From: Octopus vulgaris
Lineage: Eukaryota
Direction: 5' to 3'
NCBI GenBank assembly: GCA_951406725.2
Contig: OX597817.1
Location: forward strand, 163,928,001 to 163,992,000
Length of the DNA stretch: 64,000 bases
A model generated the notes under the pieces. It saw nothing but the letters and a program-made list of their open reading frames with translations. It was not told the DNA's origin and searched no databases. Shown here in pieces: positions 4,746-62,945 of this stretch. The translations under genes and the position numbers were made by a program. Numbering within the stretch: position 1 is the first letter of the stretch; each line of letters opens with the position of its first letter.

Positions 4746-5100
4746 TATTAGAGACAAAACCACTATTTTGCAAATCAATACATAAAAAATTTTAATATAA
4801 AGTAAATAAATCACCACTACAATTGTTTCCTGTCTTCAAATGACATTCATCATAACTTTAAAATTGAATAGAAGATATGAAATCCACCTGATGAATGTCA
4901 TTTGAAGACAGGAAACAATTGTAGTGGCGATTTATTTACTTTATATTAAAATTTTTTATGTATTGATTAAGTCTTTCCTTGTTTGATTTGCAAAATAGTG
5001 GTTTTGTCTCTAATTAATATTATATATATATTTTACTATAAAATTGGATTCAATCCTAAATCTGATTTTTCCCTGTAAATTTGGATTTATTCACTAATAT

Positions 5101-6258: not shown

Positions 6259-8079
6259 TTGTGGGATATTTATGAAACTTAAAAGTCAATTTATGTGAAA
6301 ATTAACTAATCAGAACCTAGAATATGAAGACTTGTTGATTGTTAACTAAAATGGTCAAGTGGAACTGGTTGTAGTTAAGAAATTGTTGATATCCTTGACG
6401 TTGTTGGGCCTCGAGTCGGCTCTGGTCAAGTAAATATGGATCAAAGACAGTCAACCCATGAACATCGTGACACATAAATAGTGTACAGCAGACTATGTTA
6501 TCCAAAATGACATGTTTTAAGATGGTTTGAAGAAGATTCGTCTACTATTTTTAACCAGTCGAGCGACCATATAGAGGTTTCTTCATTAGCTTGTAATAAG
6601 GAGCTTAGATGTAGAAGTAAAAAATATATAGAGAACGTAAAAAGAAAACAGTAAAGGGGCAGAGTAGGGATACGAATGACCTGCAGAAGGATTAGATAAC
6701 AAGACGAGGCTTAAATGAATAACTGAAGATCAGTAGCTTTAGCGAAATATAAAATAGAGAAGAAGCATATATGATATAGTGTATTACAACAGGGTTTCTT
6801 AATAAGACTATTTTATTTCCCTTGTGATGGGGATGAACTTCTTTGGAGGTGAAAATAGGAGAATATTTCACTGAAAGTGGGTTTATTTTTATTCAGACAA
6901 GGAGTAAAATTATTTTCGAATTATCCATCAAAATTGATCATTAAAAGTCTATAAAACACTATATTTAAAGTCGTCGACCGAAATTGCAGAAATAATTGTC
7001 TGTTTTCTATTATGCTATTTAGTTGAGACAAATTGGATGTGTACAAAAGGGGTGAGATATCTCTTACACTCAACGACATTAAACCGAAAATTGCATATTT
7101 AGTAACAAACATCGGTTTCAAGTACCTCATTAAATAAAATAGTGAGTTAAAAATGTCGTTTTAGTATTTCACTGTTTTGTGCGGAGAGAGTGATCTGAAA
7201 ACAGAATTGGCAAAAAGTTTCCAGAGGGCGATGATTGAAAAAAAATGTTGAGGACTATTATGTTGGATGAAGAAGATAAGGAAAGCAAATGCTTGGCGGG
7301 TATGTGATAAGTAACAAGATGGTAGCTAGGAGAGAATGAAATGGTATGGGAATGGGTGTCTGAAGATAAGTAGTAATGGAGGGAATATGGAACAAAGTGT
7401 AAAAAAGTGATGGTGATAGAGAGTTATATGAAGAGGAGAAGAGAATAAGTGGGGAATGACACATAAAGAGTAAATAAAACAGGAATTTGTCGAAAATCTT
7501 GAGCAGACAGATATGGTACAGTAAACGAAAGAAAAATATAGTCTTGATAAACAGAAGTTAGAAATAGGAACATAGTAATATGAAAGCATAAGGAAACGAG
7601 AAAGAACGATAAAACTATGAAAACAAACTAATGATGTACGGTATTTGCAGAGTAATTGAGTATCATAAAAACTGCCGAATTTCTTATAGATAATGTTCGT
7701 CGTTTGCAACGGTTGATGTAGGATATATTATGGGAACCAATGTAAGAAATAGAAATTATGCTCACTAAACGATGTGTAATGATGGGTTTTGAAGCAGAAG
7801 AAAATCTTCCCGGCCTGGGTATTTAGCAACCTCAATGACTCTTGTACGATGTGAACGGAGGAAGTTTCGAGAGAAAACTATTTATAAAAAGTAGTAATTT
7901 GGATGCAGCTCAATAATAAACTAAAGTTGAATATAAGAATTGAAGAATTCTGTACATGTATGTGTGTGTGTGGGGGGGGGGTTTATCGTAGATATTACAT
8001 ACTGGAGAAAAGGAAGTATGGATAATTATAAAGATTGCTGTTTTGTTTTCATGCATTCTATAGACTAAATAAATGGTTT

Positions 8080-18058: not shown

Positions 18059-18625
18059 TTGGGTTGTCCGGAAAATTCGTGCCGATTTTTAAAGGCAAGA
18101 AAAAGGTCAATAAATACTTGCCATTACATTTTTAATCAACCAAATAGAAATATTTTGTTGCACAATGCGTCTCCATCTTTCCTTTAACTTGAAAATACCC
18201 TCTTCCCAGAATTGGGGTGGTTTCATGGCAAAGAATTTATCAAGGTATCTTTTTACATCATCCAAGGAATTGAAATTTTTACCATTAAGACTATTCTGCA
18301 GAGACCTGAATAAGTGAAAATCCAAAGGAGCAATATCTGGTGAATATGGTGGGTGGGGTACCAAATCCCAGCCGAGCTGCAGCAATTTTTGTCTGGTTCC
18401 CAAAGCATCAAGTGCCGAAAATGAACTTTCTTATCTTCCATTTTAAAGGGTTACAGAATTAACACAGGTTATAGGAACATAAACCTTCTTCCATGAAAAG
18501 ATAGCTCAAACTGTGCTCTGAATGGAGGTGTGTAGTCAAATCCTATGTTATGGACTCAACCATGTTCTAAAGTAAGTCGAAAGGTAAGCTACTATAAATC
18601 GGCACGAACTTTCCGGTGAACCCAA
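18059..18625 (-). mobile_element. Internally deleted mariner transposon
   Basis: TIRs ttgggttgtccggaaaattcgtgccgattt / aaatcggcacgaactttccggtgaacccaa with TA on both sides. Transposase N-terminus MEDKKVHFRHLMLWE abuts the C-terminus containing HPPYSPDIAPLDFHLFRSLQNSL (mariner YSPDLAP motif). Confidence 0.92.
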
Positions 18626-19095: not shown

Positions 19096-19737
19096 GTGTG
19101 TTGTTATTATTCAAAGAAAAAGAACGCATGTGTATCTGTTGGCAATCTAGCATAATCATTCATATCTGAAATATGGAGATAAAAATACATAAAGCCCAAG
19201 TGTCAATGAAATTCTGCTGCGGGGATAAAATTTGGGTAATATTTCACCAGAGAAATGTCAACAGCTAGATATCTTGTCAATGTTTCCTCTTCGTTTCCGT
19301 AATCTATAAGAAATTTATCATTTCGCCTGCAGATGGAAATTCTAACTGAAGCAACGTTTGAATCACACACTGTCTATGATACGATAAAGTTTTCTCTCCA
19401 AATAGAAACTTTGGTAATTCCAGTAAATATGAAGGATATTTGAGTATTTCCATTTGTAATCAATAAAGTAGTTTTCGATTTCCCAAGTCTATCAGAAGGA
19501 AAATGGAATGCCATAATGGACAGTGCTTGAACATGTAACATGTCTAATGTTTCTGAAGAACAGCTTATTCCTACTAAAGTTTCGATTTTGACTTGCTATA
19601 AATGTGTTAGCGAATAATTCTTTTTCGTTGTGATAATTATGGTTGACAAGTATATTCTACTATAGCCACGGGCCGATCGATGCCTCGTGAATGGATTTGA
19701 TAGACGTAAACTATGTGGAAGCATATCTTTAAACTCT

Positions 19738-19987
19738 GGCTCTGATGAGACTTATATGTAAGGGAATTGTTTATATATCAAACTGCGAGAAAGTAAAACA
19801 CTTATAAATAGATTTACAATCTACCGACTAAAATTTCGACCACTTCATTCAGAATTTAAACAACATTATTTATTACAAGTCTTGAAAACTTACAGTTTAA
19901 CTTAACTTAAAACTCTTTACAAAAAAAGGACTTGAACATTTTCCTTAAAGATCAAAACTTTATATAAGTCGAAATAAATTGTTGGCC
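19738..19987 (+). ncRNA. Type I hammerhead ribozyme with ~200-nt loop II insertion (family 3)
   Basis: GGCT-CTGATGA-GACTTATATG...(202 nt)...TATATAAGTC-GAAAT-AAATT-GTT-GGCC; 10-bp stem II directly abuts both core halves; stem I GGCT/GGCC. Confidence 0.7.
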
Positions 19988-20139
19988 TTTTGATGTTTTA
20001 ATAATTGTCTATGGTATCTTATATTATGTTATATTATATTCATAGTATATTATGTTATATTATAATATAAATAAATTATTGGATTGTCAATTGTATCTCT
20101 CTATTTAATTTATCTTTATATATACATACATATATATAT

Positions 20140-20662
20140 ACTAGCAGTATCGCCCGGCGTTGCTCGGGTTTGTAAGGGAAATAACTATATAAGCATTTTT
20201 AGTGAGTTATAGCAAAAAAATAGCAAAAAAATGCATTAAAAATGGAATAAAAAATGATGGTAATTTTGGTGTCTTCAAGCCGTGAAGTCGTTGTTCTAAA
20301 AGAACGCTGGTCTCCTTGACAACGCTTTACGACGTTGATTTCCTTACACCCCCTTCCCTACAGCTTCACGAGGGAGGGAAGAAGGGGGAGAAGCAACATA
20401 GGTGCAGGTGTGAGCATGGACGCCAACTCCGCCGCCATCGACACACGAAAAAATTGGAAGAAATGGAAAAAAATGATGTTAAATTATTTTTTAAATCGTA
20501 GACTCATCGTAGACGCGCGCTAATACCCAGACGGGCTCGATATGAATCACGACTATAAGATACCCGAATTTGGTTAAACTGCACCGCAAAATGTGGGAGT
20601 AGTTAGGAATCTAAATCGTAGGAGACAGACACTCACACAACTACAGTTTTATATATATAGAT
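20140..20662 (+). mobile_element. Non-autonomous Helentron/HINE-like element
   Basis: Starts actagcagtatcgcccggcgttgctcggg (hairpin) and ends tttatatatatagat; same start at 43451 and 53592. Confidence 0.7.
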
Positions 20663-29957: not shown

Positions 29958-31339
29958 ATAACGAAGAAATAGTTTTCTAAATATTTTTTTCTAAATTTTT
30001 AACTTCCGTACAATGTGGCGCGCTGCCAGGATCGTTCAGGCATCGGGAGAAATTCTCTGCGGTATGTCTTCCAGTTCTTCATTTCCTGAGTTCAAAATCT
30101 CGCAGATGTCAACTTTTCTTTTCTTTCCATCTTTTTGGAGTGGATAAAAAAAAGTGCCATTCAAATACTAGAACCGGTGTAGTAGATGCACCCTCTCTCG
30201 AATTTTTGGCTTTGTTTCTGTATCAGAAACATTTAATTATCCTTGTGAATAACGAAAATTATGAATAATGAGTTTTTCAGGGCCCTCAAGCATTATTTTG
30301 ATTTTTCTAATAATTTCAGTTACGCTTTCAAAACTCAGCGATGCACCTGGATACTCAATGCGGCGTACTGTTTGAGAAGCAATGACATAATCTGTAAAGA
30401 CTTTAACAAATAGAACTAACAAAGTTGTTGAATGTGAATTAAGGTTGAACATATGAGCAGGTCGAACGGTGATATTATGGGTACAATCCATCTAACTGAC
30501 TTCCACTCAATTTCCATCAACCCAATTTTATATACACAGCCTGAGTAAACCTGAAGATATGTCAAAAACACCACCACCACCCCCAATGAGATCGAACTCG
30601 CGTCCTCGTAACTACGATTCAAACTTCTTTACCATTTGGCCAGAAAATATATATATTGACATAAAGAAAAGCGCTCGCAAATTGACTGATAAAAAATTTC
30701 CAAGCTTCTAACACATCTTAGAAGGAGAATTGTACTTATTGACATAGCCGCTATATATGCAACAATAGAAAAAATGGTCGATATTTCTGGCATAAACATA
30801 AAGCCACGTTTTAAGTTACATGTAATATAATGTAGTCTTAAAATATGAAAGGATTCTCCGCCTCTGCTATAAAGGCCTTTAAAAAGTCATTAATACTTCA
30901 GTGCAGGATGAAGAACTCTTCGACAACCGCAAAATTCATATGATCCTTCGCTTGTGGATTATTTGTGATTTATAAGTGGATAGGTGCATTAGGAGCGGTT
31001 TATAGTCTAATAAATAATGCAATGTACGGGTTGGAAGGAAAAGCTACAAGATTACAATTACGCGGGTTTACTGCATGATGAATGTATTCAACGAGGGAAT
31101 GTGCAGTATTTTGTTGGGGTTTTATATTATCGATTGCACTGAAAAATACTCTACGTGATATACTTTAACTACCAATTAGCGCTCTTTACAATATGCTTGA
31201 ATATTTGTGAGTCTTGGAGGCAGGTTTGTTATGCGTGTGAATGCATCTCTTTTAATGATCCCCAAGCCACCTATTTTTATTAGGAATTATTTCTGCTTTC
31301 CTTTCCCCCCCCCCCCACGTTCTCGTTATTTTTATTCAG

Positions 31340-32200
31340 GATATCATAAAACTGCTGAAAGACCTAAACGAAATCTACAAATGGGCTAACAAAAATAACA
31401 TGCAGTTCAATGCTATGAGATTTCAGGCACTCCACTATCGGTCCAGCACCAGGATAAAATCTGAATACACTGGACCAGATGATAATATGATCCCAGAGTC
31501 AGAGTCGGTGCGTGACCTGGGGGTTCACATGAGCAATGATGCAACATTCCATGTGAATATTACCAAGTTGGCGACACTGTGTAGGCGAGTAGCTGGATGG
31601 ATTCTGAGGACATTCAGAACCAGGAAAAGGGAAGCCCTGCTGCCCCAGTGGAAGACTTTCGTTCTCAGCCGCTTGGACTACTGCGCCCAACTATGGTCCC
31701 CAGAGAGTGTGAAACAAACTGTGGAACTCGAAGCGATCCAGCGCTAAGAGACAAAGAAAATCGATCGATGCAAAAGATGGGCTACTGAGAGAGGCTAAAG
31801 AAGTTGAGTCTCTATTCCCTGGAGAGAAGACAAGAGATAAATGCGGTGATATGTATTTGGAAGATCTTGGAGGGTTTAGCTCCCAATTTTGGAATTGACA
31901 GCTATACCAATCCTCGAACTGGACCGCACTGCATCATACCAAAGATCCCGTCTTCTCTATCTAAAATAAGGACACAGTACTGCAATTGTCTGGGTTTCAA
32001 GGTCCCACAATTGTTCAACATCCTTCCAGGCAACCTTAGAGATCTATATGGTGTTGATGTGGAAGTTTTCAAGGAATATCTGGACAGGTTTCTGTCTGAG
32101 ATACCAGATGAACCCACATCACGACAGGAAACGCAAAGAGCGGCTCTGTCCAACTCGCTACTTCACCAACTACAGATGGTGCACCAGCGTGACCTCAGCC
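31340..32200 (+). mobile_element. CR1/L2-group LINE 3' fragment (RT C-terminal region), pseudogenised
   Basis: ORFs 31400-31747 (RDLGV...WILRTF...SRLDYCAQLWSP...LEAIQR) and 31804-32232 (LYSLERR...QLFNILP...FKEYLDRFLSEIPDEP). Confidence 0.9.
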
Positions 32201-32744
32201 CTGGGCTGAAACCAGTAAAATATAAAAGATAAAAGATATAAAAGGTTTACTTTTGCGCATTTACCTCTGTCTAAGTATTGATTTTACTGGTCTATATAAC
32301 TTCCTAATATTTCTCATAAGACGGCCAGCTGGCAGAATCGCAAGCACGTCGGACAAAATGCTTTTAATTCTACTCTTTATCTCCAGAGTTCAAATGCTGC
32401 TGGGGTCAACATTCACTTTCATAACCTTTGGGGTCGAAAAAATAAAGTAATGGGTAAGTGTTGGGGGGGGTCAGTGTAATCGACAGACCTTCTCCCATTG
32501 AGATTGTTTACCTTGAACCCTGAAATGGGCCAGCATCCCGTTCATAAAAATGTTGTGATCTCGGTCACTTATAGGCCATGGAAACCGAGTAATTAGAGTC
32601 CTAGAGCTCGAAAAAAACTGTTTCTTTTAATCGGTCTAATTCATTAATTCCAGTGTATTTTGCAAGTTTGTGTTTAGTCCAATTATTTTGTCCCTGATTC
32701 TTTATTTAGCCTAATATCATTGCTCTTAATTAATTTTGGTCTCT

Positions 32745-61099: not shown

Positions 61100-61840
61100 C
61101 TTTCGGACGTAGTTAACACAGACGAATTCACATTTGGAACTTGAGAAAAGTCTTGCATATTTTTATTGTTCCACTCACAGATTGCATTTGTAATGTACGA
61201 ATTAGCCGGTAAATTTCTCTTTCTGAAAAGAGATGTTTATATCTGCAGGGTAGCTGACCTCTATGATGGTACATATCTTTGCCCCTCTGCCAAACAACAA
61301 TATCCGGTCTGTTATGTTTACATTTGACTTTTCATGCGAATATTCCACCAGTATTCTTTTGAGTTGGTGTTTATGAATGTATTCCATAAGAACGGGAGTT
61401 TCTAAGTTTATTTCAGGACAGTCTTTTTTGCGGATGGCATTGTAAATTGTTTTAGCAACAACATCGTGCCGCATAGGGAGGTAGTACTGTGATGACATTT
61501 TAGGACAGCTGCTAATCACATGCATAATGTCTTCCACAGAAACATGACATAACCTACACATGCGGTTGCACCTTAGACTTACAAGAGCGTCAGTCTCTCT
61601 TGTCCACCAGGTACTCTGTGACAATCTCCTGTTCCTGGATTGCAAACGCATAGCCTTCAAAGAGTGATGTGATGCAGTGGACTTGTGTCCAAGAGAGGCT
61701 GCGCTTCGTGTCAATTCTACTGTCTTCTTAAAGATTCCGGGCATGGTCTTTTTGTATGCTGAGTGCTTTCCATCCAGGTCATCGCTGAGATAAGAGAGCC
61801 CAGCTATTTGGGGGCTGTATACCTCCCTCAGAGCCATTTA
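61100..61840 (-). mobile_element. R4/Dong-clade LINE 3' fragment (CCHC knuckle and restriction-like endonuclease), decayed
   Basis: ORF 61202-61837 contains CRLCHVSVEDIMHVISSC...RHDVVAK and CTIIEVS.P.D.NI. Confidence 0.85.
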
Positions 61841-62752: not shown

Positions 62753-62945
62753 ATTGTTGGCGATTTTCTTTCTCCGTCTTCCCTTCCTTGGACCTTTCCT
62801 GTTTCTATGTTTCTGACGAAGAGCTCCGCTCGAAACGTTAAATCCTCCTTCGTCCTTTCCTTTCCTGAGCGTCCAATAACACCATACTTGTTCCACGTCC
62901 TCGCGTTGTTGTGTTTTCTCTTTGTGTTTTCATGTTTGGATTAAC
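62753..62945 (+). mobile_element. Hammerhead-bearing element, family 2b, ending in (TA)n
   Basis: Homologous to 52214-52390; microsatellites on both sides. Confidence 0.7.
62809..62843 (+). ncRNA. Ultra-minimal type I hammerhead ribozyme
   Basis: GTTT-CTGACGA-a-GAGC tcc GCTC-GAAAC-GTT-AAAT; loopless palindromic stem III (AACGTT). Confidence 0.75.

Follow-up and report, generated by a model that had tools for sequence, protein, structure and literature searches.

We identified, in the 64,000-nt stretch of octopus DNA analysed here (the window), a minimal type I hammerhead ribozyme from a Penelope-like retroelement (PLE) whose loop II is interrupted by 178 nt of mitochondrial DNA (a NUMT). With a probability of roughly 85%, we favour the reading that this piece was captured once, by microhomology-guided break repair, and that the split ribozyme is now an inert relic. 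The components are ordinary: a known kind of transposon ribozyme was hit by a known kind of insertion, which is an amusing coincidence. The insert sits on a 177-Mb contig (C4) of a 2.8-Gb, microsatellite-rich genome, and its flanks are PLE, not mitochondrial.

Every element of the split hammerhead named in a first-pass annotation of the sequence was found where it had been placed, within 19738–19987 on the plus strand. The 5′ strand of helix I (GGCT, 19738–19741) leads into the core from C3 to A9 (CUGAUGA, CTGATGA in the DNA; 19742–19748), whose letters in the window are common to 25–28 of 28 copies. The 5′ strand of helix II follows (GACTTATATG, 19749–19758, with G10.1 first; placed by sequence and fold). 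As had been claimed, a complementary arm lies 202 nt away: GACTTATATG pairs with the 3′ strand of helix II at 19961–19970, through nine Watson–Crick pairs and one G.T. By sequence, 19971–19983 hold the core from G12 to A15.1, a short near-palindromic helix III with loop III, and the GUU cleavage triplet (GAAA at 19971–19974 and T-AAATT-GTT at 19975–19983, the triplet itself being 19981–19983). The 3′ strand of helix I (GGCC, 19984–19987), supported by sequence and fold, closes the motif. The predicted cut after 19983 is correctly placed, and the AT-rich tail does run into TA-rich repeats, at about 20116–20140. The core boxes CUGANGA, GAAA and UH occur in type I order and are conserved among 26–29 copies; helix II has 10 bp and opens with G10.1–C11.1, and helix I has 4 bp, as in the minimal hammerheads of PLEs.

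CTGANGA followed by a 9-bp stem and GAAA, with a loop of up to 300 nt, occurred in none of 200 first-order Markov resamples and once in the real window. Since homologous copies also occur genome-wide, the motif is more than chance. Rfam gave no match in the window at the gathering score; at E up to 5, over five loci including short-loop copies, no hammerhead family stood among its 67 matches, which were microsatellite-driven miRNA noise only. The description of a type I hammerhead with a greatly enlarged loop II, overlooked by short-loop searches, is one that we retain. The ∼200-nt cargo that had been proposed for this loop needs trimming: the spacer is indeed 202 nt, but only 178 nt (19783–19960) are foreign, and 19759–19782 are a remnant of the native loop II of the PLE family, on the plus strand.

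We searched the genome with 19640–20010 as the query, and the 48 matches from the best 40 of 745 candidates formed two sets, one on the ribozyme flanks and one on the middle only. Members of the first set match 19724–19782, then continue directly into about 19954–19965 and further. Members of the second set match the middle alone, with different sequence following on both sides, and their longest continuous match is a mitochondrial contig (C227). Identity over 19724–19782 reaches 93–96% with five copies (L027, L028, L029, L059 and L068). An exact pattern for both ribozyme halves found 15 other genomic copies with a 25–35 nt spacer; with a spacer of 51–400 nt, the same pattern found the window itself only. 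As exact patterns overlook decayed copies, these copy counts are lower bounds. The right-hand junction, with up to two mismatches allowed, matched twice: at the window and at one ordinary short-loop copy. Hence, the homologues sought on the advice of the first-pass annotation do exist as short-loop copies, but no second long-loop copy was found among them. Conservation of the insert fails, with one long-loop copy against 15 short-loop copies and a junction that has no second copy.

Covariation among the short-loop copies was not significant: two pairs showed double changes, a result matched by 32–138 of 500 shuffles. The alignment comprised 14 of the 15 copies, L036 having been excluded for a deletion over helix III. 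In these 14 copies, 98.6% of cells were paired in helix II, where the search pattern fixes them, and 83.9% in helix I. Because stem II is fixed by the search pattern, covariation is uninformative for that stem.

On the strength of its alignment to C227, the insert is identified as a NUMT that spans mitochondrial trnY, trnW and part of trnQ. C227 is the mitochondrial contig (15,651 bp, 25% G+C), in which COX1, COX2 and COX3 score far above their Pfam cut-offs and 23 tRNAs are called under the invertebrate code. Its cox1, cob and other genes are split across frames, probably by assembly indels. Window positions 19769–19965 align to C227 6809–6613 reversed, at 88.9% over 198 nt (E 1e-67), and this is the only match between the window and C227. 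The insert itself, 19783–19960, corresponds to C227 6795–6618 reversed, and its tRNA genes are read on the minus strand, antisense to the ribozyme. They are an approximately complete pseudo-trnY (tRNA-Tyr, GTA; 19783–19849, aligned to C227 6729–6795), a complete pseudo-trnW (tRNA-Trp, TCA; 19850–19916, called directly in the window by ARAGORN -mt) and the 3′ part of a pseudo-trnQ (tRNA-Gln; 19917–19960, aligned to C227 6618–6662). On C227, ARAGORN placed trnQ at 6593–6662, trnW at 6662–6728 and trnY at 6729–6795; its bacterial mode found no tRNA in the window, and the mitochondrial mode was required. A search with the insert gave 39 further nuclear matches to the 180-nt mitochondrial tRNA stretch (77–100% identity, 36–179 nt), located on many contigs and in some cases pieces of one locus. 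One such copy (L004) sits inside an apparent Helitron Rep frame. Two other identities were ruled out. The insert starts near a GT donor-like word, but it is not an intron, as native loop and mitochondrial DNA account for the sequence; nor is it a second transposon family, as its best continuous match is the mitochondrial contig.

Sequencing runs from four organisms all contain the unique left flank; the single-copy sequence there is 19100–19646. In two of them, contig depth over the insert was 2101 (X6) and 786 (X8), compared with 4–7 for the unique flank, so that insert contigs were about 100–400 times deeper, as expected of the organelle. It is extremely improbable that mitochondrial reads were mis-joined into a repeat by assembly or alignment. 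Both parts are repeated sequence, and no run contig spans the whole stretch or either junction, but the insert differs from the C227 of the same assembly at 14 of 178 aligned sites, mostly by states common to other NUMTs. Moreover, X2 alone among the four runs has a contig (117 nt, 19807–19923) that equals the window insert, and its depth is that of a single copy, 20 versus 15 for the flank. In X4, X6 and X8, no contig carries the window letter at 19844, where gaps in contig coverage prove nothing; short-loop joints occur at single-copy depth, and no contig connects these joints to the 19738–19987 locus. Two short-loop junction variants of X4/X6 were not found in this assembly. The runs hint that the site may be empty in relatives. 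None of the runs listed as containing the sequence was an RNA run, which speaks neither for nor against expression.

Comparison of copies identifies the ribozyme family as a Penelope-like element and the window copy as a 5′-truncated PLE end. By sequence identity, the 5′ part of the pseudo-LTR remnant, truncated at about 19724, runs on the plus strand from 19724 to the left insertion junction at 19782. Copy comparison assigns 19988–20115 (+) to the AT-rich 3′ tail, which ends in the TA-rich repeat at 20116–20140. In all, the window copy retains about 215 nt of the terminal repeat, without coding sequence. Directly upstream of the truncated copy, outside the ribozyme, lies a fragment of an abundant dispersed repeat (19647–19712, no strand assigned) that is presumably SINE-like and that has very high contig depth in the sequencing runs.

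Upstream of the short-loop copies lie over 2 kb of AT-rich sequence and, beyond them, broken coding sequence on the ribozyme strand. A reverse transcriptase (RT)-like piece (L097) matches residues 310–451 of a 753-residue public protein, P0005 (pairwise E 4e-23), and a cysteine-linker/GIY-YIG-like endonuclease (EN) piece (L096) matches residues 609–744 (pairwise E 3e-11). Both pieces thus match P0005 in RT-then-EN order, and in sister copies the RT and GIY-YIG frame is joined to the hammerhead repeat. Neither the protein pieces of the family nor P0005 matched RT or GIY-YIG in Pfam, so these labels rest on the P0005 matches, on Atlas leads (cluster members with GIY-YIG, 18%; HTH_animal, 14–26%; RVT_1, 11%) and on motifs in the pieces that we take to be those of RT and GIY-YIG. 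Word-based protein searches with the EN piece gave no match, and neither did a PDB search with P0005. L100, L049/L074 and L106 each carry EN, then the 3′ region, then the hammerhead on a single strand, and L106 is a partial tandem. An inverted hammerhead tail adjoins a truncated frame in six of the eight regions fetched (L100, L102, L103, L104, L105 and L107). Upstream of one family copy, at about 4,000–5,100 of L074 (contig C8), there is also a LINE-type RT frame of 500 codons that has no relation to the PLE.

We judged the junctions of the insert against the paralogue L028. The insert took the place of about 5–6 bases of the loop, 6 when counted in L028 and 5 in most close copies. The PLE and the mitochondrial piece share 3 nt at the left, the last of the native loop remnant, and 5 nt at the right, the first of the helix II 3′ strand. 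Both overlaps arose at random mitochondrial positions with a joint frequency of 0.0029. The left 14 nt were matched at 11 of 14 by only 28 of 31,274 positions. Microhomology at fusion points is established for NUMT capture by end joining in the available text of Hazkani-Covo and Covo (2008; PMC2567098). Taken together, the NUMT identity, the microhomologies and the few bases replaced mark the insert as a NUMT, and a double-strand break within a 5′-truncated PLE copy is its probable point of capture. In the sequence of events that we propose, the PLE end would have inserted first, truncated, beside a TA repeat. A double-strand break in the A-rich part of loop II could then have been bridged by a mitochondrial fragment, from the organelle or from an older NUMT copy, which annealed via the 3 nt at the left and the 5 nt at the right and replaced the 5–6 bases. 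The PLE and NUMT parts would since have drifted at a similar low rate. This order, with the PLE first and the NUMT later, is suggested by the paralogues.

The divergence of the two parts is consistent with such a history. Across 17 aligned NUMT loci out of 25, the insert is 93–94% identical to the closest other NUMTs over most of its length, compared with 91–92% to the mitochondrial contig. With its slightly greater similarity to other NUMTs than to C227, the insert may stem from an old haplotype or from a nuclear donor. A near-identical nuclear donor was not found among the best 40 of 46 candidates, the best being 94% identical over 178 nt and 97% over 99 nt. In the PLE part, 3 of 214 sites (1.4%) carry a window letter that occurs in less than one fifth of copies; in the NUMT, 3 of 174 do (1.7%). 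The private divergence of the two parts is similar and low, and is compatible with neutral drift.

This similarity would also suit an improbable alternative, in which the element's own reverse transcriptase changed template twice, leaving PLE RNA for a mitochondrial transcript at the 5-nt microhomology and returning at the 3-nt one, to produce the chimera in one step. The family has many inversions and rearranged ends, and microhomology is present at both ends of the insert. However, two switches would be required, onto RNA antisense to the tRNAs. One insert end is the 3′ end of trnY, which would be expected from an RNA-templated route too, yet the left homology falls in trnC, past the processed trnY end. 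In addition, NUMTs of the same stretch are common without PLE flanks, and the runs of three related organisms with the flank hint at short-loop forms and at the absence of a window-type insert. We therefore continue to favour capture at a break.

The fold gave a divided answer to the structure that had been predicted. For 19725–20000 (276 nt), the hammerhead is missing from the minimum-energy structure, whose stability does not exceed that of shuffles (z = 0.02), but the centroid keeps stems I and II. Stem I has a pair probability of 0.42–0.53 here, compared with 0.00–0.17 among five folded short-loop copies; for the constrained hammerhead-like state, the probabilities are 0.034 here and 5e-6 to 0.008 there. 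In contrast, stem II closes at about 0.6 here versus 0.9–1.0 for most pairs in the short-loop copies, and its closure depends on the fold bounds, shifting from 0.59 to 0.00 and 0.36 once these are widened. The real insert was equalled or surpassed in stem II closure by random mitochondrial pieces in 19/40 and 18/40 cases (1/15 in the widest context), and by shuffled inserts in 12/40 and 19/40 (0/15 in the widest context). Only in that widest context did the real insert exceed the controls, namely 15/15 shuffles and 14/15 random mitochondrial pieces. Helix II remains able to close around the insert only because both arms were spared by chance.

In active elements, the ribozyme presumably cuts precursor RNA as a dimer, by way of its palindromic helix III. 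A palindromic helix III and loop 3 suited to this are present in the PLE family but were lost in the window copy through C15.2>U at 19975, where 3 of 29 copies have T and 26 do not. The helix III self-duplex is predicted at 0.0 kcal/mol here, compared with −3.4 kcal/mol in the family, and helix III itself is essentially unformed (probability 0.01). The window contains no second hammerhead of this PLE family. Given a weakened helix III and no dimer partner in the window, the ribozyme is likely to be inactive in vivo. These predictions make an in vivo role unlikely; weak cleavage in vitro at high Mg2+ may be possible.

The first-pass annotation had suggested that the insert may be structural or regulatory, and this suggestion is not supported: the insert is a one-off mitochondrial piece, the loop being long in one copy against short in 15, with a unique junction. 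Because the insert is likely an accidental mitochondrial piece, the locus is likely an ordinary relic and not a regulatory design; the intact catalytic core counts against a relic. We regard it as very improbable that the insert has been tolerated or selected in a working split ribozyme, with loop-controlled cutting of a host transcript in a Clec2-like domestication. Stems I and II are predicted to be able to form beside that core, and the Clec2 discontinuous hammerhead is known in mammalian 3′ UTRs (PMC6155905, available text). Nevertheless, the split form is single copy in the genome and was not seen in three related-organism runs, in which coverage has gaps, and no host gene was identified on the plus strand. 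The unformed helix III, the abolished dimer duplex, the missing second family hammerhead and the fall of stem II closure to 0.00 with the fold bounds all weigh against activity. So does the behaviour of a PLE minimal hammerhead elsewhere, which showed no cleavage in vitro as a monomer and weak cleavage as a dimer (PMC4209133, available text).

More improbable still is an accidental tRNA-sensing ribozyme, in which a hammerhead split by a one-step capture of mitochondrial DNA would still fold and cleave. Being antisense to three mitochondrial tRNAs, the loop could pair with these and thereby switch the ribozyme. Such a ribozyme would provide a dated example of the origin of discontinuous ribozymes such as that of Clec2. 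The locus would gain importance only if expression and cleavage of the split RNA took place, since it would then show a discontinuous ribozyme arising in a single event. The relic reading has uses of its own. It provides an example of a NUMT junction for which the sequence before the insertion is known, and the presence or absence of the insertion may serve as a marker among related species. A further lesson is that, when a repeat-rich genome yields a long-loop hammerhead match, this match should be compared with short-loop paralogues and the mitochondrial genome before anything else.

Minimal type I hammerheads occur in the pseudo-LTRs of metazoan PLEs, according to the available text of Cervera and de la Pena (2014; PMC4209133), and comparisons with that text place the octopus family among them. 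The shared features are intact core boxes, G10.1–C11.1, a long helix II, a 4-bp helix I and a tiny palindromic helix III suited to dimers; in both, most copies are solitary and truncated, and some form inverted pairs a few hundred bases apart. The octopus family differs in having a helix II of 10 bp with a loop of 24–35 nt and in lacking the bulge after A9 that is usual there, the unpaired base between 9 and 10.1 being found neither in the window copy nor in any of the 14 aligned copies. The window copy differs further by its 178-nt NUMT in loop II and by C15.2>U. Set against the available text on EN+ PLEs of the Neptune/Nematis type (bioRxiv 10.1101/2021.04.23.441226), the sister copies likewise have RT, a cysteine linker (CxC...C) and GIY-YIG at the C terminus, and the family shares the hammerhead in the terminal repeat, the layout of partial tandems with inverted 5′-truncated copies and the TA-repeat ends. 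Unlike those elements, the window copy is reduced to about 215 nt of terminal repeat and lacks coding sequence.

With the end-joined NUMTs covered by the available text of PMC2567098, the insert shares a short chromosomal mitochondrial fragment, microhomology at the fusion points and little target loss, whereas the target here is a ribozyme loop. The Clec2 hammerhead, in the available text of PMC6155905, is discontinuous, with a helix I insert of 150–1500 nt; its only resemblance to ours is that the halves are parted by a long insert. That ribozyme is type III, split in helix I and found in mRNA 3′ UTRs of several mammals, whereas the window hammerhead is type I, split in loop II, single copy and without a known host transcript. 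A literature search, which left most subscription journals outside its reach, found no report of a hammerhead split by a NUMT, and the available parts of PMC3088659 and bioRxiv 10.64898/2026.07.22.740005 hold nothing on a NUMT insert in a hammerhead.

Other features of the window were observed around the motif. On the minus strand, 19203–19598 is a single-copy frame of 130 codons, broken by one TAG (19374–19376), a stop that runs X2 and X8 do not have, and an acceptor-like site near 19599 precedes it. No Pfam family matched this frame, and its only match, to a multi-Ig protein, was short, weak and probably due to chance. The frame could be a host exon or chance; if it were an exon, the hammerhead would lie antisense within its intron. 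Inside the TA tail of the PLE, 20141–20661 on the minus strand hold a non-autonomous element that we take to be Helitron-like from its 5′ TC, its 3′ hairpin with CTAG and its position between A and T; a copy of it interrupts the NUMT locus L002. We presume that 18107–18430 (minus) is a remnant of a mariner/Tc1 transposase C-terminus, which its translation resembles, and that the open frames at 31259–32229 (+) and 61205–61837 (−) are remnants of LINE-type reverse transcriptases. A different family of short-loop minimal hammerheads is represented twice, at 4888 and 23988 (+), with a 5-bp helix II, a palindromic helix III and a GUA site. A relaxed scan found further hammerhead-like motifs at 62813 (+), 51058 (+) and 37813 (−), which are probably the ends of other PLE families.
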